This document shows, in pieces, positions 22,894 to 56,368 of a DNA stretch of 64,000 bases. Location: the sequence record PZ452583.1; one strand, given 5' to 3'. Made by a program: the position numbers and the translations under genes. The notes below the pieces were generated by a model. That model did not search any database. It had not been told where the DNA came from and saw nothing but the letters and a program-made list of their open reading frames with translations. Every line of letters starts with the position of its first letter. Positions within the stretch are counted from its first letter, which is position 1. The stretch comes from a phage.

Positions 22894-22897
22894 CAAT

Positions 22898-22927
22898 GGG
22901 GACCTTTCGGTCCCCATATTTTTATTT
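22898..22927. terminator. bidirectional terminator after gene 54
   Basis: GGGGACC-TTTC-GGTCCCC then ATATTTTTATTT. Confidence 0.7.
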
Positions 22928-23212
22928 ACGGAATGAAATAAAAGCAGCAACTGAAGCAACTAAACTGTCTTCAATATAAACTTCAATTTTTACCGGAGCT
23001 TCTGACTCAAATTTACCTGTTACTACACCCTGAAAAATACTTTCAGTCTGTTCTGGCTTTGAAAAATTTTCAGAAGGAAAAATTCCGAACTTTTTATCTG
23101 TTCCAAAAATTTTGATAAATTCATCGTAAACTGCTTCATTAAAAGCATTATCAGCAGGAATAACGCCTTCAACTACAAGTTCTTGACCTAAAAAGCGCAA
23201 AGAAGATTTCAT
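22922..23212 (-). CDS. hypothetical protein (alt-proximal small ORF)
   Basis: 96-aa ORF with SD GAGGAA and early-promoter cassette upstream. Confidence 0.55.
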   Translation of the reverse strand: MKSSLRFLGQELVVEGVIPADNAFNEAVYDEFIKIFGTDKKFGIFPSENFSKPEQTESIFQGVVTGKFESEAPVKIEVYIEDSLVASVAAFISFRK

Positions 23213-23219
23213 TTTGTGT

Positions 23220-23273
23220 TCCTCATGTTATGTCAGTAAGACTACTATAACACAACACGAGGGACTTGTAAAC
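23220..23273 (-). repeat. 54-bp early promoter cassette, copy A
   Basis: 53 of 54 nt identical to 38546-38599. Confidence 0.8.
23244..23272 (-). promoter_or_regulatory. early promoter (TTTACA-17-TATAGT) within 54-bp repeat copy A
   Basis: T4 early-type GTTTAC -35 and TATAGT -10, followed by SD GAGGAA. Confidence 0.6.
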
Positions 23274-25330
23274 TACATTTTGAACTTTTTAGACATTCCG
23301 TTGATGTTAACCAAAGAAGCTAAGATTTGAGAAACTTCGTTTTCCTCTTCTTTTGATTCTTCTACAAGGAATTGATTAAATCCAGCCATTGGACGAACTT
23401 CACCAGTTTCCATTAGATGGTCGCCATCATATACTGATTCTTCTAATTGTTCAGAAGGAGGAACGATTGTACCTTCGATTAGATACTTGTTATAAGCAGT
23501 TTCTTTCATAAAGTAAGTACTTACTTTATTAATCTTCAGTAAAATTCCACGTGGTAGAATAACTTCAGCTTCTGATGGAAATCCTGATAAATGACCTGGA
23601 ACGATAACTTTTATTCGCTCAGCTCCTTTAATTACCATACCCACGCTAGTTTCAGCATCTTCATTAGCATATGTAGAATGACTACCCATATGCATCAAAT
23701 CTTCTGCATCAACGGAACCTTCTCCTTCGCCAGAAAATACTGCACCGGAATCATCTAGAGCCATATAGTTTTTACCATGCTCACCGAAGATATTTGGTTT
23801 AAGTGATGTCGATACGAAGTTCTTGAAATAGAACATTTTATTTTCAATATTGTGACGCAAAGTTTTAAAGGTAACTTCTTGTCCACGGTAAAGTGTAGTT
23901 CCTGGAGGAAGAACTGAACCTTTAGCGAATGCAGAATCCAGCGTCTCAATATGTTTAATAGCTCGTTCCATATATTCTTCACGGGTAGAATCTGGTTTAC
24001 CCAAAAGGAACGAGTTCATTTCAACATATGAATCTGCGCAATAATCTTCAATTACGTCAGATTCAGCCTGAGTTAATCCTTTTGGAGTTACTTCAGTACT
24101 TGCATATTCATATGCCTGAGCGGCAGATTCATTAATCAATTTATAAATGCCATTCATGACAAATTGAATAATAGCTGTCTTTTCATCTGGCGTAGCTTTA
24201 GAACCTTTAACTAAATCATTGATAATTTTCTTAATAACATCAAAGCTATTAGAAATATTAATGTCAGCAAGATCGCTTAAAATTTTATCAGTTTTATAAT
24301 CAAAGAATTCTTTATTCTTTAAATATTCTTGAGAACCTTGATATGTTATATCGCTCTGCAACTTGATAGATGGATCACGTAAACGCGCATGGGCTAATGC
24401 AATATGATTTCGGAAGTTTTCTAGTTCATAATCGTTAGATTTAAAACGAGAAGCACTTCTCATACCACCGATAGCTCCTTTGCCGAAGTTTGAACCAATC
24501 TGAATAACGCCAGAGTTCATTGGTCCTTCTGCTTTATATACCGGAACTTTGGATTCAAACTCTTGATATTTCTTAGCAGCGAAGCTATCACCCTGAAGTG
24601 AAGCATCAACAGTAGAATATTGAGCTTGTGCTGCTAATCGACGACTAATTTTAGTTTTCTGAATAACAGCTTGGTCCGTGCGCTTATCATTTTCTAAAGC
24701 AATAGAAGCAGCAACTGCGACAGCTTTAGGAACAGCATTACCTGTTTTAACGTCTACATAAACATCACCAACCTTTGATTCAACTTTTGTGAATAACTCA
24801 GTTGAAATAGGAGGTACACCTGGAATGTCTTCTAAATTGGCATTTTTACGGTAAACCATAATATATGCGTACTTTTTATCATAATCCCAGATTTCCTTTA
24901 AAAGAACATATCGACCTGCTCCTTTAGTACGTACTAAACGGTCAGCAATAACTTGCATTTGACGAGCAGCGCCATTTGTTTTACTCTTTAGTACGCGGAA
25001 TAAGCATGCATCAATTTTATACTGTTTCATTGTTTGAAGAGCAGTATCAAAAACAGCATTAATGACGCCAATTGGATTTCCACCCAAGTTTTTAAGCTTA
25101 ACTAATGATAGTTTCTCATTAACACCTATCATTACGATATGCATCATTTTGTCGCCTGGCTTAACGTTTTTATTCGTATCACCGCCAGAGGTGTATGTAC
25201 AAAATCTAAATCCAGGGAGAACGCTTTCTTCACCGGCTTGAATAGCAAAAATTTGTGGTATTTTATGCTTAGGATTTAAGTTAACAACCGGCGCCGAAGC
25301 GCCGTCAAATAATTCTGTAATAAGTTCCAT
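23273..25330 (-). CDS. Alt-like ADP-ribosyltransferase, paralog 1
   Basis: 685-aa ORF; N-terminus MELITELFD...; ART R-S-ExE signature (YRGQ, FVSTSL, EAEVILPRG); paralogous to the adjacent upstream gene. Confidence 0.85.
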   Translation of the reverse strand: MELITELFDGASAPVVNLNPKHKIPQIFAIQAGEESVLPGFRFCTYTSGGDTNKNVKPGDKMMHIVMIGVNEKLSLVKLKNLGGNPIGVINAVFDTALQTMKQYKIDACLFRVLKSKTNGAARQMQVIADRLVRTKGAGRYVLLKEIWDYDKKYAYIMVYRKNANLEDIPGVPPISTELFTKVESKVGDVYVDVKTGNAVPKAVAVAASIALENDKRTDQAVIQKTKISRRLAAQAQYSTVDASLQGDSFAAKKYQEFESKVPVYKAEGPMNSGVIQIGSNFGKGAIGGMRSASRFKSNDYELENFRNHIALAHARLRDPSIKLQSDITYQGSQEYLKNKEFFDYKTDKILSDLADINISNSFDVIKKIINDLVKGSKATPDEKTAIIQFVMNGIYKLINESAAQAYEYASTEVTPKGLTQAESDVIEDYCADSYVEMNSFLLGKPDSTREEYMERAIKHIETLDSAFAKGSVLPPGTTLYRGQEVTFKTLRHNIENKMFYFKNFVSTSLKPNIFGEHGKNYMALDDSGAVFSGEGEGSVDAEDLMHMGSHSTYANEDAETSVGMVIKGAERIKVIVPGHLSGFPSEAEVILPRGILLKINKVSTYFMKETAYNKYLIEGTIVPPSEQLEESVYDGDHLMETGEVRPMAGFNQFLVEESKEEENEVSQILASLVNINGMSKKFKM

Positions 25331-25333
25331 GAT

Positions 25334-27427
25334 TTATCCTTGAACGAACTTGTAAGGCATGTTTGTAATATCTATGCAAGACGCAATAATTCCAAGAGAT
25401 GATTCTACTTTCTGTTTAACATTTGATGAAACAAATGATGCAAAGTCAACTCTGTCTTCTATTTCAATATCACCTGTCATTGCAACCAATTCACCAGTTT
25501 CCATTAAATGGTCTCCGTCATAGATTACCGATTCGGTGAGTTCTTCGGTGGTCATAACTTCAGCTTGAATGAGTTTTGTATTATTAGACGTGGTTCCGTC
25601 ATTATTAGAAGCATCAGTTATTTTATTAACTTTGACCATCAATCCGCGCGGTAGAATAACTTCAGCTTCTGTTGCTATTCCGAGACTTCCTGGATATACA
25701 ACATTAACTTTATGAGCTCCATCAATTGCCCATCCTATTTGAACTTTAACGTATTCAGGATTTTCTTTATACGCTCTTATTTCGTTTGGATTAATAGTTA
25801 TTCCTTCTTCATTTTTATCAACTGTCAATTCATTACGAGTTTCTGGTTCTAAAAGACCAATACCAGCATGTGTAATTCCAAAACGTCCAAAAATGATAGG
25901 AGTTAAAGAAGTAGATACAAAATTTCTGAAATAGAACACTTTATTTTTAACTAGTGCTTCGTATATAGGAGCAGTCATACTTTGAGCACGATAAACTGTG
26001 ATGCCTTCCGGTATGCGGTCACCATTTTCAAAAGCTGAATCTAAGTTATTTATAGCAGATTCAATTTCTTTTTCACTCATTACATCATATCGTTCTGGAT
26101 TGTAACGACCTAAAAGAAGATTATTAATGTCAGTATATCCTGAACCGCAATATTCTCTAATGCCACGCTTTTGTGATGGAGTATATTTAGAACCATCGCG
26201 GGCAATAGTAATATCAATCATTGGACCAGCACCAATTCCAGAAAAACTGTAAATCATTCGTTTGAGGAATTTAGTTTTTGCTACGTTCCAGGAATTTTTA
26301 GTTATTTCTTCCCAGACTTCATCTGGTTGTCCTTTACGATTTTTATTATGATTAGCAAGCCATTTATCTTTATAATCTTCAAAGAATTGATTTACAGCTG
26401 CTGCGTATTTCTCTAAACATTTTATTGAAGTAGTTGGTTCATTTTTAATTGCATTAAAAATTACTTCTTTAATTTTTTCTGAAACTTCACCGACTTGACT
26501 CATTGGAAAGAATTTATAATCATAGTGAAGTTCATCTGCCGTTCCTTCAGCAATAATTTTTGCTGCCTTTGTTTTAGAAGCTAATGAATTAATTCCAATT
26601 TTCATTTCTTCTGCTTCGGGAATTAAAGGTGCAGTAGCTGGTTTATTAAAATTAGCTGCTGTAGATTCATACTTCTGGAATAATTCACTTTCAAATCTAG
26701 AAGATTCCAATGATTGACTTTGCGCAATTGCTCTACGGGAAATTTTAACTTTAACGATTACAGCTTGGTCAGAACGTTTATCATTTTCTTGCGCAATAGA
26801 TGCTGCAATTGCCTCATTTTTAGTTACTTGGGCTCCAGTATCTTTATTGATATAAACATCGCCGACTTTCGATTCAACTTTAGTAAAGAGCTCGGTACTA
26901 ATTTCCGGAACTCCTGGAATGTCTTCTAGTGATACATTTTTGCGATGTATAAGAATATATGCATACTTTTTATCATAATCCCAGAGTTCCTTAAGAAGGA
27001 CGTATCTACCACCTGAACGACTACGGATAAGTCTATCAGCAATAACTTGAATTTGTCGAGCTTGGCCAGCAGTTTTAGACTTAAGAATACGAAGCATACA
27101 AGCATCAATTTTATATTGACGCATTGTTTGCATTGCAACAGTAAAAACTGAATTGATATAATTAATCGGGCTTGGACCAAGACCTTTTAATTTAGCAATT
27201 GAACCTTTAGCAGTTAATGTAAAAGGAACAATATGCATCATTTTATCGCCCATCTTTAAATCGCGATTAGTATCACCTCCAGATGTATAGGTACATAAAC
27301 GAAAGCCTGGTTGTTCAATTGCATCATCAACATGAACTGAAAAAATTTGTGGTATTTTCTTCTTTGGATTTAAGTTTGTAATCGGAAGAGTAGTATCTTC
27401 GTCAAATAATTCTGTAATGAGTTCCAT
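25334..27427 (-). CDS. alt: Alt ADP-ribosyltransferase (internal head protein), paralog 2
   Basis: 697-698 aa (two adjacent ATGs at 27430 and 27427); ART signature YRAQ, FVSTSL, EAEVILPRG; late promoter TATAAATA upstream. Confidence 0.88.
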   Translation of the reverse strand: MELITELFDEDTTLPITNLNPKKKIPQIFSVHVDDAIEQPGFRLCTYTSGGDTNRDLKMGDKMMHIVPFTLTAKGSIAKLKGLGPSPINYINSVFTVAMQTMRQYKIDACMLRILKSKTAGQARQIQVIADRLIRSRSGGRYVLLKELWDYDKKYAYILIHRKNVSLEDIPGVPEISTELFTKVESKVGDVYINKDTGAQVTKNEAIAASIAQENDKRSDQAVIVKVKISRRAIAQSQSLESSRFESELFQKYESTAANFNKPATAPLIPEAEEMKIGINSLASKTKAAKIIAEGTADELHYDYKFFPMSQVGEVSEKIKEVIFNAIKNEPTTSIKCLEKYAAAVNQFFEDYKDKWLANHNKNRKGQPDEVWEEITKNSWNVAKTKFLKRMIYSFSGIGAGPMIDITIARDGSKYTPSQKRGIREYCGSGYTDINNLLLGRYNPERYDVMSEKEIESAINNLDSAFENGDRIPEGITVYRAQSMTAPIYEALVKNKVFYFRNFVSTSLTPIIFGRFGITHAGIGLLEPETRNELTVDKNEEGITINPNEIRAYKENPEYVKVQIGWAIDGAHKVNVVYPGSLGIATEAEVILPRGLMVKVNKITDASNNDGTTSNNTKLIQAEVMTTEELTESVIYDGDHLMETGELVAMTGDIEIEDRVDFASFVSSNVKQKVESSLGIIASCIDITNMPYKFVQG

Positions 27428-27450
27428 CATATCCTCTCTAGTGTTTATTC

Positions 27451-27458
27451 TATTTATA
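27451..27458 (-). promoter_or_regulatory. late promoter for alt
   Basis: TATAAATA on minus strand between a hairpin and the alt SD GAGAGGA. Confidence 0.6.
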
Positions 27459-31409: not shown

Positions 31410-31775
31410 TTAAATATCAAATTCGTTAAGAACTACATCAAAGATTGCTTCAAGATGCTCAGGTTTAGCTCTGTTACTCAGAATATGACGAATCCAAGTT
31501 TTAACCAAAAGCTTGCGATTAACGCCATTCCAGCAAGGATGAGTCCCTAAATCGCGTTCACGGAAATCATCATCCAGAGCGATTTTAAAGTTGGAACCTT
31601 CCATCGTGATTGAAACCGTGATGCCATTTTCAAATCGCATATAAACGTAGTTAGGAGTCATATACTGTTCAATTTCGCATACTGATCCATTTTGATGTTT
31701 CCAGAGGCAAATAGTATCAATAGAACCTGCAATACCATTAGAAACATATTTACGTTCAAAGTTAATGTAGTTCAT
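31410..31775 (-). CDS. hypothetical protein
   Basis: ORF track 31410-31838; ATG at 31775 with SD GGAG lies downstream of the early promoter, giving a 121-aa product. Confidence 0.55.
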   Translation of the reverse strand: MNYINFERKYVSNGIAGSIDTICLWKHQNGSVCEIEQYMTPNYVYMRFENGITVSITMEGSNFKIALDDDFRERDLGTHPCWNGVNRKLLVKTWIRHILSNRAKPEHLEAIFDVVLNEFDI

Positions 31776-31816
31776 TTTATTCTCCAGGTGTTTAAGTTGT
31801 TTGTTGGTACAGGTAT

Positions 31817-31844
31817 ATAATATCATATCCTGTACCAAAGTAAA
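31817..31844 (-). promoter_or_regulatory. early promoter (GTTTAC...TATTAT) with -10 inside an inverted repeat
   Basis: minus strand TTTACT-16-TATTAT; flanked by GGTACAGG / CCTGTACC. Confidence 0.5.
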
Positions 31845-31849
31845 CTATT

Positions 31850-32218
31850 TTATGCAACTTTAATCCAATTATCTAAATTTAATTCACCTTTGGCTTTCAT
31901 TTTTTCAATCAAGAGGTCAGCGGTAATACGACCATTTTGATACCACGTGACATCTTCAGAGTAACCAGTTTCTTTATCTTCATAAGTCTCACAGCGAATT
32001 TTACCAAGAATCAAAGTTTTTAATTCGTATGTATCTCCAGTAAAAAAGTTAGTTAACATTATTTTCCAAGAGAAATCATCAGAAGGACCTTCAGGAGTCA
32101 TACAATCTACAAATTCAAATTGTTCTTTATATAAATGCCACTGAAGTTCTTTAGTTTCGATAGCTTTATAGCCGTCGTGATCTTTACCTTTGATGTATGA
32201 GTTAAGATTGATTTTCAT
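31850..32218 (-). CDS. hypothetical protein
   Basis: 122-aa ORF with SD AAGGAG and early promoter upstream. Confidence 0.55.
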   Translation of the reverse strand: MKINLNSYIKGKDHDGYKAIETKELQWHLYKEQFEFVDCMTPEGPSDDFSWKIMLTNFFTGDTYELKTLILGKIRCETYEDKETGYSEDVTWYQNGRITADLLIEKMKAKGELNLDNWIKVA

Positions 32219-34998: not shown

Positions 34999-35234
34999 AG
35001 TACGCCATACACCCTTTGTGCTTCAACTAATCCATCAAAATCCAATTTGAGATGTGTTATTTGATCACCATCACCTGGATTCACAATTACTAATACTGAA
35101 CGAGGAGTTTCGGTAATAACACGAACTGATGTTTCAGGAAATCGTTCAGAAACCTTATTTACCAATTCCTGTGCAAATAGCTTAACTTTTTCTTGGAATT
35201 CTTTAACAGTAATCGGTTTTTCACTTAGCAGCAT
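34995..35234 (-). CDS. hypothetical protein (cd.2 position)
   Basis: 79-aa ORF; SD GAGGAA and early promoter upstream. Confidence 0.55.
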   Translation of the reverse strand: MLLSEKPITVKEFQEKVKLFAQELVNKVSERFPETSVRVITETPRSVLVIVNPGDGDQITHLKLDFDGLVEAQRVYGVL

Positions 35235-35263
35235 TTTGTTTTCCTCATTTGTTTGGTAGAGCT

Positions 35264-35292
35264 ATAATATCACAACTCTACCATAAAGTAAA
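35264..35292 (-). promoter_or_regulatory. early promoter (TTTACT-17-TATTAT) with -10 inside an inverted repeat
   Basis: flanked by GGTAGAG / CTCTACC. Confidence 0.5.
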
Positions 35293-35295
35293 CTA

Positions 35296-35601
35296 TTAAA
35301 TTGCTTTGAATTCTGCTGTCTGCGATTCAAAACGAATATCGCCTTTGATAACTAGCTCAGCATCAAGACCGAATACAACAATGATATGCGCGGAACCTGG
35401 ATACAACGTAATTGCAATAGAATCCACCTGGTCTGGAAGCAAAGTGTTCAATACATGAGTCACTTGAGCATGGATTCGAAGCTCGGCTGCGTTATCAAGC
35501 TTTTCAAACATGTTATTAGCGATAATTTGGCTAAACACTACTTCTACGATTTTAGAGTAAGTCGGAAACATATTTACCTCACATAATTTTCTTCGAGCCA
35601 A
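35296..35601 (-). CDS. hypothetical protein (cd.3 position)
   Basis: 101-aa ORF. Confidence 0.55.
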   Translation of the reverse strand: MARRKLCEVNMFPTYSKIVEVVFSQIIANNMFEKLDNAAELRIHAQVTHVLNTLLPDQVDSIAITLYPGSAHIIVVFGLDAELVIKGDIRFESQTAEFKAI

Positions 35602-37694: not shown

Positions 37695-38044
37695 TTAGAA
37701 AGGTCCTGGATGTCTTCTGCGAACTTGTTGAAGGAGTTGTTGATTTGTTTTTCAACCAATCCTGGCTTATGAGCCACCACATCCGCCTTCTTTGCGTCTT
37801 TGCGCAGCTTTTCATTTTCACGCTCAATAGCAGCAATTGCCTCACGATTTTTATTATTCATCGCATCAATATAATTATACTGAATTCGCAAATTATTTAA
37901 TGCTAAAGCGTTTTCATTGGCCGTTTTTGTAATTTCTACAACAGACGTTTCTAATCTTTCAATTTTATTTTTTAAAATTAAAGAAGTTCCGCCCAATGCA
38001 ATTACAATTAATAACAAGCCTGCTGTCGTATTACTTAATTGCAT
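37691..38044 (-). CDS. pseT.3: inner-membrane spanin (i-spanin, Rz-like)
   Basis: 117-aa ORF: N-terminal transmembrane helix followed by charged coiled-coil periplasmic domain. Confidence 0.65.
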   Translation of the reverse strand: MQLSNTTAGLLLIVIALGGTSLILKNKIERLETSVVEITKTANENALALNNLRIQYNYIDAMNNKNREAIAAIERENEKLRKDAKKADVVAHKPGLVEKQINNSFNKFAEDIQDLSK

Positions 38045-38541
38045 AAAGTTTTAATAACCTCTATAATATCGTCTTGAGAAAGACCGTTAATTAAAATATG
38101 ATGTTCAGCCGGAGATTTAGAAATTTTAAAGCATGCCTCAACATCTTCTGCCATATCCGATGCACTACGATTTGGATTACTAATTCCAAGACGATGCTTT
38201 CCAGTCAAAGGATTAACGATGATATAGCATTTGCAGCTATTGATATGAACATTAGGCTGAGTCTGATTAATGAACACTTCGCAATCATACTTAGCGAGTT
38301 GATTTTCTAAAAAGACTTTCATCTCTTCAACCGCATCAGGAAGCATATCACGGGCTTGCTCAAGACGACGATTTCGATATTCTTTAATGGTCGTTTTCCG
38401 CTTGACTTGCTTAGCTAAATCTTTCTTAAGATCGGTGATATATCCAACTCGACGATTTCCTTTGAATACAGAAATCCCATCTGTAGTATCACCGTATGCT
38501 TCAACGACCATTTCAGTAGTAATAAGCTGCAAATCCATCAT
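38035..38541 (-). CDS. alc: Alc transcription terminator for cytosine-containing DNA
   Basis: 168-aa ORF in T4 alc position; early promoter cassette upstream. Confidence 0.75.
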   Translation of the reverse strand: MMDLQLITTEMVVEAYGDTTDGISVFKGNRRVGYITDLKKDLAKQVKRKTTIKEYRNRRLEQARDMLPDAVEEMKVFLENQLAKYDCEVFINQTQPNVHINSCKCYIIVNPLTGKHRLGISNPNRSASDMAEDVEACFKISKSPAEHHILINGLSQDDIIEVIKTLCN

Positions 38542-38545
38542 AAAG

Positions 38546-38599
38546 TCCTCATGTTATGTTAGTAAGACTACTATAACACAACACGAGGGACTTGTAAAC
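38546..38599 (-). repeat. 54-bp early promoter cassette, copy B
   Basis: 53 of 54 nt identical to 23220-23273. Confidence 0.8.
38570..38598 (-). promoter_or_regulatory. early promoter within 54-bp repeat copy B (upstream of alc)
   Basis: identical promoter sequence to copy A. Confidence 0.6.
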
Positions 38600-38602
38600 A
38601 GC

Positions 38603-40190
<1,588 letters not shown>

Positions 40191-55252: not shown

Positions 55253-56368
55253 ATGGAAAAATTTATGGCAGAGTTTGGACAAGGATATGTCCAAACGCCA
55301 TTTTTATCGGAAAGCAATTCAGTAAGATATAAAATAAGCATAGCGGGTTCTTGCCCGCTTTCTACAGCAGGACCATACGTTAAATTTCAGGATAATCCTG
55401 TAGGAAGTCAAACATTTAGCGCAGGCCTTCATTTAAGAGTTTTTGACCCTTCCACCGGAGCGTTAGTTGATAGTAAATCATATGCTTTTTCGACTTCAAA
55501 TGATACTACATCAGCTGCTTTTGCTAGCTTCATGAATTCTTTGACAAATAACAGAATTGTTGCTATATTAACTAACGGAAAGGTTAATTTTCCTCCTGAA
55601 GTAGTATCTTGGTTAAGAACAGCAGGAACGTCTGCTTTTCCATCTGACTCTGTATTGTCAAGATTCGACGTATCATATGCTGCTTTTTATACTTCTTCTA
55701 AAAGAGCTATTGCATTAGAGCATGTTAAACTGAGTAATAGAAAAAGCACAGATGATTATCAAACTATTTTAGATGTTGTATTTGACAGTTTAGAAGACGT
55801 CGGAGCTACCGGGTTTCCAAGAAGAACGTATGAAAGCGTTGAGCAATTTATGTCAGCGGTTGGTGGAACTAATAACGAAATTGCAAGATTACCAACTTCA
55901 GCTGCTATAAGTAAACTCTCTGATTATAATTTAATTCCTGGTGACGTTCTTTATCTTAAAGCCCAGTTATATGCCGATGCTGATTTACTTGCGCTTGGAA
56001 CTACAAATATATCTATCCGTTTTTATAATGCATCTAATGGATATATTTCCTCGACACAAGCTGAGTTTACTGGACAGGCTGGGTCTTGGGAATTAAAGGA
56101 AGACTATGTAGTTGTTCCAGAAAATGCAGTTGGATTTACGATATATGCACAGAGAACTGCTCAAGCGGGACAAGGCGGTATGCGAAATTTAAGCTTTTCT
56201 GAAGTATCAAGAAATGGCGGCATTTCAAAACCTGCTGAATTTGGCGTCAATGGTATTCGTGTTAATTATATCTGTGAATCTGCTTCACCTCCGGATATAA
56301 TGGTACTTCCTACGCAAGCATCGTCTAAAACTGGTAAAGTGTTTGGGCAAGAATTTAGAGAAGTATAA
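55253..56368 (+). CDS. 35: long tail fibre hinge (knee) protein gp35
   Basis: 371-aa ORF, T4 gp35-like. Confidence 0.9.
   Translation: MEKFMAEFGQGYVQTPFLSESNSVRYKISIAGSCPLSTAGPYVKFQDNPVGSQTFSAGLHLRVFDPSTGALVDSKSYAFSTSNDTTSAAFASFMNSLTNNRIVAILTNGKVNFPPEVVSWLRTAGTSAFPSDSVLSRFDVSYAAFYTSSKRAIALEHVKLSNRKSTDDYQTILDVVFDSLEDVGATGFPRRTYESVEQFMSAVGGTNNEIARLPTSAAISKLSDYNLIPGDVLYLKAQLYADADLLALGTTNISIRFYNASNGYISSTQAEFTGQAGSWELKEDYVVVPENAVGFTIYAQRTAQAGQGGMRNLSFSEVSRNGGISKPAEFGVNGIRVNYICESASPPDIMVLPTQASSKTGKVFGQEFREV

Follow-up and report, generated by a model that had tools for sequence, protein, structure and literature searches.

A near-identical pair of early-promoter cassettes upstream of alc and alt.-3 in a Tequatrovirus genome, with a predicted hairpin covering the ribosome-binding site

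In the 64,000-nt stretch of phage DNA analyzed here (record PZ452583.1; hereafter, the window), a 54-nt cassette occurs twice on the minus strand, once in front of alt.-3 and once in front of alc, and each copy was predicted to form an RNA hairpin that pairs the SD sequence. We consider it rather likely that each copy is a compact, self-contained T4 early expression cassette, combining a promoter with a hairpin that hides the ribosome-binding site (RBS), and that copying from alc to alt.-3 accounts for the pair. The stem-loop, which went unnoticed in the original prediction, is the main functional feature of the cassette. The duplicated cassette is a further example of a known T4 type of regulatory cassette.

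The duplicated cassette and its promoters

On direct comparison, the two copies agreed at 53 of 54 positions in the same orientation at a spacing of 15,326 bp, as had been claimed beforehand, and both read TCCTCATGTTATGT[C/T]AGTAAGACTACTATAACACAACACGAGGGACTTGTAAAC. A search for further copies at up to three mismatches returned only these two in the window, where 100 shuffles gave an expectation of zero. The features at the two loci are as follows.

23220..23273, minus strand: cassette copy 1, the entire gap separating the second alt paralog's stop codon from alt.-3
38546..38599, minus strand: cassette copy 2, the whole gap between rnlA (gene 63) and alc
23244..23272, minus strand: early sigma-70-type promoter of copy 1 (TTTACA at 23267-23272, 17-nt spacer with TGn, TATAGT at 23244-23249)
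38570..38598, minus strand: early sigma-70-type promoter of copy 2 (TTTACA at 38593-38598, TATAGT at 38570-38575)
22922..23212, minus strand: alt.-3 (96 aa), served by copy 1 and so named in the T2 and T4 records
38035..38541, minus strand: alc (inhibitor of host transcription), served by copy 2, annotated from close relatives
23273..25330 and 25334..27430, minus strand: two tandem alt paralogs, whose transcripts would read into copy 1
38603..39727, minus strand: rnlA (RNA ligase 1, gene 63), whose transcripts would read into copy 2
22896..22917, no strand assigned: terminator-like hairpin, bidirectional, lying between alt.-3 and gene 54, with a terminator annotation in relatives

Each copy has the same minus-strand order, namely upstream stop codon, TTTACA-17-TGnTATAGT promoter, leader, SD sequence GAGGA and ATG. 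At copy 1 the upstream stop codon TAG has its G in common with GTTTAC, and at copy 2 the rnlA stop codon TAA ends 3 nt ahead of the cassette. The hairpin at 22896..22917 marks the end of the minus-strand unit, and direct-repeat families at a spacing of about 2094 nt match the tandem alt paralogs.

A consensus scan scored both promoters at 10/12, with the upstream TG present and 17-nt spacing, and the T4 early-type promoter, leader and SD sequence originally ascribed to this strand were present in both copies. As judged from this consensus, each copy was predicted to act at the DNA level as a strong sigma-70 immediate-early promoter, and the usual 7-nt distance would place the transcription starts at about 23237 (copy 1) and 38563 (copy 2), corresponding to T4 positions near 123057 and 136300, respectively. 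The cassette has in common with T4 early promoters (Hinton 2010, PMC2988021) a GTTTAC-type -35 box, an extended -10 box (TGn), 17-nt spacing and a location directly before an early gene. It differs from them in having TATAGT instead of TATAAT or TACTAT as the -10 box, in that its UP-element region is coding sequence, and in that a second signal, acting at the RNA level, lies in its spacer and leader.

To place this similarity on a scale, 33 early-promoter cassettes of T4 were aligned in one common 54-nt register, giving 528 pairs with a mean identity of 50.8% (sd 9.3%, 99th percentile 81%), of which the alc/alt.-3 pair ranked first (53/54, 98%). Although the common consensus of T4 early promoters reaches beyond the hexamers (PMC2988021) and T4 has promoter-region families with 75-87% identity, a mere consensus effect or chance is practically refuted as an explanation by this margin over the mean, by the agreement at 37/38 positions outside the -35 and TGn/-10 boxes (T4 mean, 37%) and by the shuffles, which expect no such pair. 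The earlier contention that the identity exceeds what promoter consensus would give was thus upheld.

The phage is a Tequatrovirus (T4 genus), and its duplicated cassette is not private to it. The alc-locus query matched 999 places in 500 phage records and the alt.-3-locus query two places each in T4 and T2; both copies are present in about 500 sequenced members of the genus, including T4 and T2, essentially all of which keep both.

The predicted hairpin and an early-only translational gate

In RNA that reads through the cassette from upstream, the promoter spacer was predicted to form the 5' arm of a hairpin, with the -10 box in the loop and the SD sequence in the 3' arm.

23218..23265, minus strand: RNA hairpin of copy 1 in read-through RNA, with SD GAGGA (23220-23224) in the 3' arm
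38543..38593, minus strand: RNA hairpin of copy 2 in read-through RNA, with SD GAGGA at 38546-38550
27451..27458, minus strand: match to the late-promoter consensus, TATAAATA, immediately ahead of alt and a putative source of late read-through
About 39754-39779, upstream of rnlA: putative MotA-box middle promoter, as a consensus match

The sense RNA folded at -23.0 kcal/mol for copy 1 (z -4.4) and -24.4 kcal/mol for copy 2 (z -5.2), where the stem base AAGTCC/GGACTT reaches 3 nt past the repeat into alc-specific sequence. The antisense strand folded 6-8 kcal/mol more weakly (copy 1, -17.2), because several of the stem pairs are G-U; for the same reasons, namely the reliance on G-U pairs and the weaker antisense fold, a DNA cruciform role was dropped. 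In the read-through RNA, the predicted cost of opening the RBS from SD to AUG was 13.7 kcal/mol for copy 1 and 17.4 kcal/mol for copy 2, with an unpaired probability of about zero at four of the five SD bases, and in RNA begun at the cassette's own start it fell to 2.4 and 3.8 kcal/mol, respectively. The predicted start, 7 nt downstream of the -10 box, falls at the top of the 3' arm. In the own-start RNA of alt.-3, the SD sequence still pairs weakly with the first codons despite the small opening cost.

These predictions are consistent with a translational gate in which transcription starting inside the hairpin loop would yield a transcript whose leader, some 25 nt long and predicted to be nearly unstructured, leaves the SD GAGGA accessible ahead of the alc or alt.-3 ATG. 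RNA begun further upstream would include the promoter spacer, which would pair with the SD region in a stem of about 20 bp and block ribosome binding. Such read-through RNA would be furnished by late transcripts from the alt late promoter and by middle or delayed-early transcripts passing through nrdB, denA and rnlA. Essentially the only templates for translation of alc and alt.-3 would then be the early transcripts from each gene's own promoter. The TATAAATA motif also occurs at T4 position 125531, its promoter activity being predicted from the consensus, and none was found inside the cassette; the T4 middle promoters PI-TevIII and PnrdB+ have been mapped upstream of rnlA (PMC2988021, Table 1).

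Gates of this kind are known for T4 e, soc, 49 and I-TevI, in which the SD and/or AUG becomes part of a helix in long transcripts begun further upstream and an internal promoter gives translatable transcripts that do not include the 5' arm (PMC3014915). In the cassettes, likewise, the SD sequence was predicted to be paired in upstream-started RNA and the start site to fall inside the hairpin. However, the internal promoter of those genes is late and restricts translation to the late period, whereas that of the cassette is of the immediate-early sigma-70 type and would restrict it to the first minutes; moreover, the gate of e, soc, 49 and I-TevI was shown by experiment (PMC3014915), whereas that of alc and alt.-3 is a prediction with covariation support.

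In the whole window, no curated covariance model of Rfam 15 gave a hit at its gathering threshold, and the sole Rfam hit near a cassette was at chance level (E = 0.98). An inverted-repeat finder did not pick up the RNA stem, with its G-U pairs, and gave other, short arms of Watson-Crick pairs. A role as a RegB target was dropped, as the Tequatrovirus cassette carries GAGGA and not GGAG. Our literature search yielded nothing on a hairpin at alc or alt.-3, which older T4 work (Miller et al. 2003; the promoter compilation of Liebig and Rueger) may describe; the single paper mentioning alt.-3, on CmdTAC escape mutants, is silent on its promoter.

Conservation of the hairpin across genera and its other possible roles

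Scans of IMG/VR with the Alc and Alt.-3 proteins gave five to six T4-like loci each, too few for a population test, and most comparative data therefore came from the phage collection. At the rnlA-alc junction, nine genera (Tequatro-, Dhaka-, Gelderland-, Karam-, Jiaoda-, Moon-, Roskilde-, Braga- and Winklervirus) were all shown to have, directly behind TTTACA, a sequence perfectly complementary to the SD region, with arm sequences that vary by genus, for example TCTCCGTTTAGTT/AACTAAACGGAGA, ACCTCTCATTTT/AAAATGAGAGGT and TCCTCATCAG/CTGATGAGGA. All 81 of the 81 alignment cells were paired, and double-sided (compensatory) changes were observed at 8/9 pair positions; slid partners paired in 42-51% of cells, and the best of 2000 shuffles reached 85%. 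Pairs and controls were computed in Python on an alignment made by seeking the complement, which leans towards structure. As judged from these sequences, the hairpin design at alc appears to be ancient and conserved across genera.

The design does not extend to every cassette of the group. In five other genera, alt.-3 is preceded by a different cassette of equal length that has only a mini-hairpin inside the spacer and leaves the SD sequence free, so that shortage of room does not impose the hairpin design. Before alc, Mosigvirus has a cassette of another kind, in which the SD sequence is not paired, so that at least one genus can dispense with the gate; in Gaprivervirus the locus is rearranged.

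Covariation does not separate a gate from 3'-end stabilisation or from RNA polymerase pausing or attenuation, any of which could maintain the pairs. The hairpin might accordingly be mainly a transcriptional or RNA-stability element, serving as an attenuator or terminator or protecting the 3' end of the rnlA and alt mRNAs, with the SD pairing incidental. Attenuation or stability is the role proposed for PeSL stem-loops, one of which, placed before lacZ, cut expression as much as rrnB T1 (Arbiol et al., PMC2839356), and stems that surround the -10 box but stop short of the SD sequence occur at other early promoters, both on the minus strand of the window (31845, 35293) and in T4. That lacZ assay, however, did not separate termination from translational occlusion. 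A terminator scan was empty at either cassette, where the sequence after the stem (ACACAAAAUG in copy 1, UAUGAUG in copy 2) does not have the U run that, with a GC-rich stem, defines an intrinsic terminator, and no U-tract follows the alc stem in any of the nine genera, the downstream sequence being A-rich. Furthermore, the SD sequence lies within the 3' arm in all nine genera though the arm sequences differ, and the equal-length alt.-3 cassettes of other genera have their stem elsewhere. On balance, we regard this role as unlikely to be the main one.

It is even less likely, to a degree that we would call very doubtful, that the hairpin couples translation of alc and alt.-3 to the upstream gene, with the stem melted and the SD sequence exposed by ribosomes that end translation at the stop codon of rnlA or alt, 0-9 nt ahead of the 5' arm. 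In every genus, the stop codon of the upstream gene adjoins the -35 hexamer or overlaps it, and the 5' arm begins 6-9 nt later, as coupling would have it, but a minimal intergenic promoter also demands such tight spacing. In the window, the pairing partners of GAGG are found 12-15 nt past the stop codon in copy 1 and about 15-18 nt past it in copy 2, and a terminating ribosome is not expected to unwind RNA that far, given the position of the ribosomal helicase.

Origin of the alt.-3 copy and relation to mobile cassettes

As to how the predicted early-only gate came to stand at both loci, we infer that alt.-3 received its cassette from alc in the ancestor of Tequatrovirus; the copies are near-identical, in this proposal, because the alc cassette was copied over that of alt.-3. 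The direction is suggested by the fit of the stem to its flanks: AAGTCC of the cassette pairs with GGACTT, whose CTT lies outside the repeat and is alc-specific, and the equivalent position at alt.-3 gives a C/A mismatch. In T2-type phages, the change C11T at alt.-3 restores pairing with the alt.-3 flank GGAAC, and in phage ACG-C40 a 1-nt G insertion at alc removes a bulge and brings the fold to -32.8 kcal/mol. In the common ancestor of the genus, the alc cassette would have overwritten the one that alt.-3 then had, probably by short-patch conversion bounded by motifs already common to both cassettes, GTTTACAA and AACATGAGGA. Selection on promoter and hairpin would then have held both copies, with exchange occasional at most. 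An independent alc/alt.-3 exchange in Mosigvirus was also considered and found unconvincing, the common part, ATCAACAACA(C/T)GAGGA, being close to the general early-leader consensus.

The original prediction had likened the copies to the promoter-early stem-loop (PeSL) cassettes proposed as recombination sites for shuffling small ORFs. PeSLs are defined as comprising an upstream stop codon, -35 and -10 boxes, a stem-loop overlapping the -10 box, an SD sequence and an ATG (Arbiol 2010, PMC2839356). The cassette anatomy fits this class: in common with PeSLs (PMC2839356; Comeau et al. 2014, PMC4122927), both copies are intergenic units from upstream stop codon to downstream ATG, with a sigma-70-type early promoter, a stable stem-loop over the -10 box or between the boxes and an SD sequence at the 3' end, and they are repeated within the genome, one copy having apparently moved between loci. 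PeSLs, however, are described as terminator/attenuator-plus-promoter units and crossover points, enriched in hyperplastic regions by variable ORFans, whereas the alc and alt.-3 loci are syntenic across genera and not hyperplastic, with no indel ending in the cassette and no U-tract. The 3' arm of the cassette stem is, in addition, the ribosome-binding site, unlike in the PeSL descriptions; a text search of PMC2839356 and PMC4122927 for translation, sequestration and ribosome gave nothing on a stem arm in this role. The likeness thus stands for anatomy and for the apparent copying of one cassette between loci, and fails for small-ORF shuffling, since synteny holds in every genus examined.

That the copies serve chiefly as PeSL-type recombination substrates, as linkers for modular shuffling or for mini-circles or deletion of the intervening DNA, appears improbable to us. 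Besides the matching anatomy (PMC2839356) and the evident movement between loci, several observations speak for such a role: Mosigvirus has a related -10-to-ATG segment at a third locus, beside ndd; the same base change recurs at both loci at four of the variable positions, 16, 27, 32 and 40 (hypergeometric p = 0.003); ACG-C40 and T2 each have a derived base common to both copies, compatible with occasional conversion; and homology of less than 50 bp suffices for recombination in T4 (Singer et al. 1982, as cited in PMC2839356). The recurrent changes, however, are all transitions, some of them improving the stem or the -10 box, and can be explained by parallel selection, and in several genomes the two copies differ at three to five positions, which argues against steady homogenisation. 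The gene order flanking both copies (rnlA-alc and alt-alt.-3-gene 54) was the same in every genus examined, counter to any ORF shuffling. The only nearby difference in gene content, the absence from T4 of most of the second alt paralog, has its breakpoint about 20 nt outside the cassette.

Deletion of the intervening block, which had also been raised, can be set aside. The 15.3-kb interval holds DNA ligase (gene 30), co-chaperonin (gene 31), cd and pseT, and because genes 30 and 31 are essential, a deletion between the copies would not be viable; the retention of both copies in essentially all of the roughly 500 genomes agrees with this, no natural recombinant being visible among the 999 matched places. 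One old cassette replacement followed by purifying selection, with later exchange only hinted at, accounts best for the near-identity.

The early-promoter repeats of the T-even internal-protein loci (Repoila et al. 1994, as cited in PMC2839356) have AT-rich stems and are likewise common to neighbouring genes. In the account given there, they flank a highly variable gene set and are linked to shuffling of internal-protein genes, whereas alc and alt.-3 are conserved.

Should the gate work as predicted, it would explain how synthesis of Alc and Alt.-3 is confined to the first minutes of infection, their genes lying directly downstream of rnlA and alt, two genes with middle- and late-period transcription. 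PeSL-type stem-loops would also gain a second role, in translation, one not considered in the PeSL papers. The pair would further provide a natural example of a regulatory cassette copied to another gene and then adapted to its new flank, of relevance to the evolution of phage modules, and a portable 54-nt "own-promoter-only" expression unit could be useful in phage engineering. Because the element is present in T4 itself, these predictions are directly testable in a standard model system.

More tentatively, and with less confidence than in the reading of the two copies themselves, we suggest that T4-like phages possess a subclass of immediate-early promoters set inside RBS-sequestering hairpins, acting as early-only gates against middle and late read-through, transplantable by short-patch conversion and re-tuned to a new flank. 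An example would be the copying from alc to alt.-3 in the ancestor of Tequatrovirus, with the later compensatory C11T of T2-type phages. In T4, the subclass would include at least the cassettes preceding alc, alt.-3, regB, denV, dexA and nrdC.8, the six of the 33 whose own spacer-to-SD complementarity was more extreme than the 5th percentile of cross pairs (permutation test on the mean, p < 5e-5).

Duplication of the early-promoter cassette

The 54-bp duplication was found as two direct copies lying 15,326 bp apart, with 53/54 identity.

23220-23273, minus strand: copy 1, beginning on the final stop-codon base of a 685-aa alt paralog and ending 7 nt before the ATG of a 96-aa ORF
38546-38599, minus strand: copy 2, starting 3 nt past the stop codon of RNA ligase 1 and ending 4-7 nt before the alc ATG

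The 96-aa ORF was identified as alt.-3 by T2 and T4 annotation, and the genes around both copies lie on the minus strand. The sole difference between the copies, C/T at base 15, corresponds in the minus-strand reading, GTTTACAAGTCCCTCGTGTTGTGTTATAGTAGTCTTACT(G/A)ACATAACATGAGGA, to G/A at cassette position 40 (window 38560 in copy 2). The A form at alc was rare, in that only 2 of 500 records matched the alc-locus query of the window at >=99%; in T4, the same A sits instead in the alt.-3 copy (T4 123054). A consensus scan identified a minus-strand early promoter in both copies (TTTACA, 17 nt, TATAGT, with TG upstream), and a search of the window allowing up to three mismatches detected these two copies only, none being expected by chance.

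As originally predicted, the similarity exceeded that attributable to promoter consensus. Among 33 T4 early-promoter cassettes preceding a start codon in the reference genome, compared in the same 54-nt register, the 528 pairs showed a mean identity of 50.8% (sd 9.3%, 99th percentile 81%), and the alc/alt.-3 pair ranked first at 53/54. Outside the -35 and TGn/-10 boxes, this pair retained 37/38 identity versus a mean of 37% for the T4 cassettes. The proposed refuting outcome, copies no more alike than random early-promoter pairs, was thus not obtained. The repeat is real and highly non-random.

The flanks were about 99% identical to those of phages AV122, G4498, and PE37, and the window belongs to Tequatrovirus. 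An 81-nt alc-locus query matched 999 places in 500 phage records, and the alt.-3-locus query matched two places each in T4 (123040-123096 and 136283-136339), T2, and every listed Tequatrovirus member; the duplication is thus not peculiar to this genome. Other repeated T4 promoter regions comprised one 73-nt pair at 97% (55346-55417 versus 146837-146909, 91 kb apart, upstream of nrdC.10 and frd.3) and one family at 75-87% over 80-100 nt, indicating that near-identical early cassettes are a recurring T4 feature rather than a unique event.

Hairpin and ribosome-binding site

The sense RNA across each cassette was predicted to form a long stem, a feature absent from the original prediction, in which the promoter spacer constitutes the 5' arm, the -10 box lies in the loop, and the 3' arm, AUAACAUGAGG, includes the SD. 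The predicted folding energies were -23.0 kcal/mol (z -4.4) for copy 1 and -24.4 kcal/mol (z -5.2) for copy 2. The antisense strand folded 6-8 kcal/mol less well owing to several G-U pairs in the stem, which favours a role at the RNA level, in the coding-strand transcript. The predicted start, at the top of the 3' arm, lies about 7 nt past the -10 box, and RNA initiated at the cassette promoter would lack the 5' arm. The predicted cost of opening the SD-to-AUG region was 13.7 (copy 1) and 17.4 (copy 2) kcal/mol in read-through RNA started further upstream, and 2.4 and 3.8 kcal/mol, respectively, in own-start RNA. The stem would hide the ribosome-binding site in read-through RNA, and this is most likely its function. 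No U-tract follows the stem, and the terminator scan gave no call at either cassette. Two further early promoters of the window (31760-31860 and 35210-35310, minus strand) carried 12-14-bp stems enclosing the -10 box, with the 3' arm at the transcript start and, in the centroid fold of one, a free SD.

Comparison of rnlA-alc junctions from other genera revealed a common plan in eight (Dhaka-, Gelderland-, Karam-, Jiaoda-, Moon-, Roskilde-, Braga-, and Winklervirus). In 8/8, (G)TTTACA comes after the rnlA stop and runs directly into the complement of the SD region; a TAnnnT box then occupies the loop, and the SD-bearing arm stands 6-10 nt before the ATG. The arms vary by genus yet remain complementary (TCTCCGTTTAGTT/AACTAAACGGAGA, TCTCCATTTGGTTG/CAACCAAATGGAGA, ACCTCTCATTTT/AAAATGAGAGGT, and TCCTCATTTCGTT/AACGAAATGAGGA), with predicted energies of -17 to -25 kcal/mol, and no U-run followed the stem in any genus at the junctions examined. 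When one sequence per genus was taken from nine genera including Tequatrovirus, the nine pairs after TTTACA were standard in 81/81 cells, with two-sided changes at 8/9 pair positions; sliding the 3' partner by 1-3 nt left 42-51% paired, and the best of 2000 column shuffles reached 85%. Although the alignment was made by locating the complement and so leans towards structure, the occurrence in nine genera of an unbroken 9-nt complement lying precisely over the SD cannot be put down to chance.

Lineage-specific changes in the Tequatrovirus copies likewise kept or improved the stem: C15T and G16A convert C:G to U:G and G:U to A:U, and a 1-nt G insertion in the ACG-C40 alc copy pairs a bulged C (predicted -32.8 kcal/mol). 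By such comparative evidence, namely covariation at alc and compensatory changes at both loci, the stem was shown to be under selection. Two exceptions were encountered at alc. The Mosigvirus cassette is a different one, whose small hairpin is confined to the spacer and leaves the SD free. In Gaprivervirus VR25, rnlA and alc are separated by an additional 78-aa ORF (460-693 of the comparison sequence), which looks like a partial duplicate of the Alc N-terminus and follows a GGGG/CCCC stem that overlaps the -35 box.

Probable origin of the alt.-3 copy and possible later exchange

In Mosig-, Marfa-, Moon-, Karam-, and Dhakavirus, the alt-to-alt.-3 gap was equal in length and different in design, carrying a mini-hairpin of 4-6 bp wholly within the -35/-10 spacer (e.g., CACAC-GGAT-GTGTG, TCCAC-ATGGAA-GTGGA, GCACAC-GGAA-GTGTGT, and CCACA-AGGA-TGTGG).

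L034 343-400, L035 341-400, L036 341-400, L037 342-400, and L007 1509-1565 (comparison sequences from other phages), minus strand: alt.-3 mini-hairpin cassettes

The mini-hairpin stems showed compensatory changes between genera, with the SD unpaired with the spacer; the SD-pairing cassette at alt.-3 is thus Tequatrovirus-specific. The mini-hairpin cannot occlude the SD. Similar CCAC...GTGG mini-hairpins precede T4 gene 60, nrdC.5, and ndd.6 (T4 promoters 2458, 50973, and 167086), and a comparable spacer hairpin, ACACCA...TGGTGT, precedes Mosigvirus alc.

The alc stem base AAGTCC pairs with GGACTT, whose CTT lies outside the 54-nt repeat and is alc-specific; the alt.-3 flank GGAAC creates a C/A mismatch at the stem base. 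C11T, found at alt.-3 only, in T2 and a related metagenomic phage, restores GUUCC/GGAAC pairing. The flank fit at the stem base and C11T point to alc as the probable source of the cassette, and the most likely reason for the near-identity is that the alc cassette was anciently copied onto alt.-3. Since the repeat ends coincide with the motifs GTTTACAA and AACATGAGGA, we infer that about 36 nt were converted as a short patch between two microhomologies; both motifs were found at alt.-3 in Dhaka- and Mosigvirus, and the ancestral alt.-3 cassette would already have had them. In the Mosigvirus ndd-denB region (L005 and L006, ~1500-1570), a third locus, next to ndd, carries before a small ORF a cassette whose segment between -10 box and ATG is 87% identical to that of the alt.-3 copy, with a different stem, GTAGGA/TCCTAC, around the -10 box.

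The copies differed at 0, 0, 0, 1, 1, 1, 1, 3, 4, and 5 of 54 substitution positions in ten genomes, the alt.-3 copy being the more variable. Differences of up to 5/54, together with the 1-nt insertion in the alc copy of ACG-C40, one of the three genomes without a substitution difference, show that steady homogenisation is not taking place. At positions 16, 27, 32, and 40, the same base change recurs at both loci in one genome or another (hypergeometric p = 0.003), and both copies share T27C in ACG-C40 and G32A in T2. This recurrence fits occasional conversion between the copies; it fits parallel selection or transition hot spots as well, since every change is a transition and several of them improve the -10 box or reinforce the stem.

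Relation to known T4 elements and to recombination

In terms of function, the nearest counterparts are T4 genes e, soc, 49, and I-TevI, whose RBS-sequestering hairpins enclose a late promoter (PMC3014915); the internal promoter of the alc/alt.-3 cassette is early, so that the logic is inverted. Strong complementarity of a cassette's own spacer to its SD was found in T4 before regB, denV, dexA, nrdC.8, alc, and alt.-3. These 6/33 T4 cassettes lay beyond the 5th-percentile mark for cross pairs (for the mean, permutation p < 5e-5), indicating that the design is a class and not a one-off.

T4 62797 (regB), 65413 (denV), 8218 (dexA), and 53943 (nrdC.8): cassettes with spacer-SD complementarity, duplex -10.7 to -19.5 kcal/mol

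These four appear to belong to the same SD-sequestering class as alc, and occlusion of the RBS in longer transcripts was reportedly noted for dexA in the 1980s. As an expression cassette that combines promoter and hairpin, the repeat falls within a known T4 kind.

An early-only gate would matter where early genes sit downstream of later-transcribed genes, and alc and alt.-3 are so placed, given a late-promoter consensus before alt and the mapped T4 middle promoters PI-TevIII and PnrdB+ upstream of rnlA (PMC2988021, Table 1).

27451-27458, minus strand: late-promoter consensus TATAAATA, about 20 nt before the alt start (in T4 at 125531)
~39754-39779, minus strand: candidate middle promoter by consensus match only (MotA-box-like TGCTT, 15 nt, TGnTACTAT), just upstream of rnlA and absent from the published T4 middle-promoter table

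The scan detected no terminator-like site between the late-promoter consensus and the cassette, the next one lying after alt.-3. Overall, an RBS-hiding promoter-hairpin cassette whose alc copy was placed onto alt.-3 is, in our estimation, a reasonably probable explanation.

The proposed likeness to promoter-early stem-loop (PeSL) cassettes held for anatomy and found no support in behaviour. A PeSL comprises an upstream stop codon, an AT-rich region, -35/-10 boxes, a stem-loop, an SD, and an ATG, with the stem-loop placed either between the boxes or across the -10 box (PMC2839356). The behaviour ascribed to it is terminator activity, variable-ORF neighbours, and indels ending in the element. 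The alc/alt.-3 cassette lacks the U-tract of a terminator and departs from this behaviour in the other respects: synteny was kept at both loci in the genera examined, where flanking gene content revealed none of the suggested ORF shuffling, and in T4, where most of the second alt paralog is gone, the missing stretch stops about 20 nt upstream of the cassette. Translation is not discussed in the PeSL papers. A recombination hot spot at these loci is possible but unsupported. The suggested deletion between the repeats would yield a non-viable phage, as the 15.3-kb block (alt, gene 30 for DNA ligase, rIII, gene 31, cd, pseT, and spanins) contains genes 30 and 31, both essential in T4, and about 500 genomes showed no such deletion; circles might form transiently in infected cells.

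The window also contains alt (ADP-ribosyltransferase) as a tandem pair of full-length paralogs, 685 and 698 aa long (23273-27430, minus strand), about 70-80% identical in patches (direct repeats with ~2094-nt spacing). T4 has one alt only, plus alt.-1 and alt.-2, which its record describes as remnants of an alt duplication.
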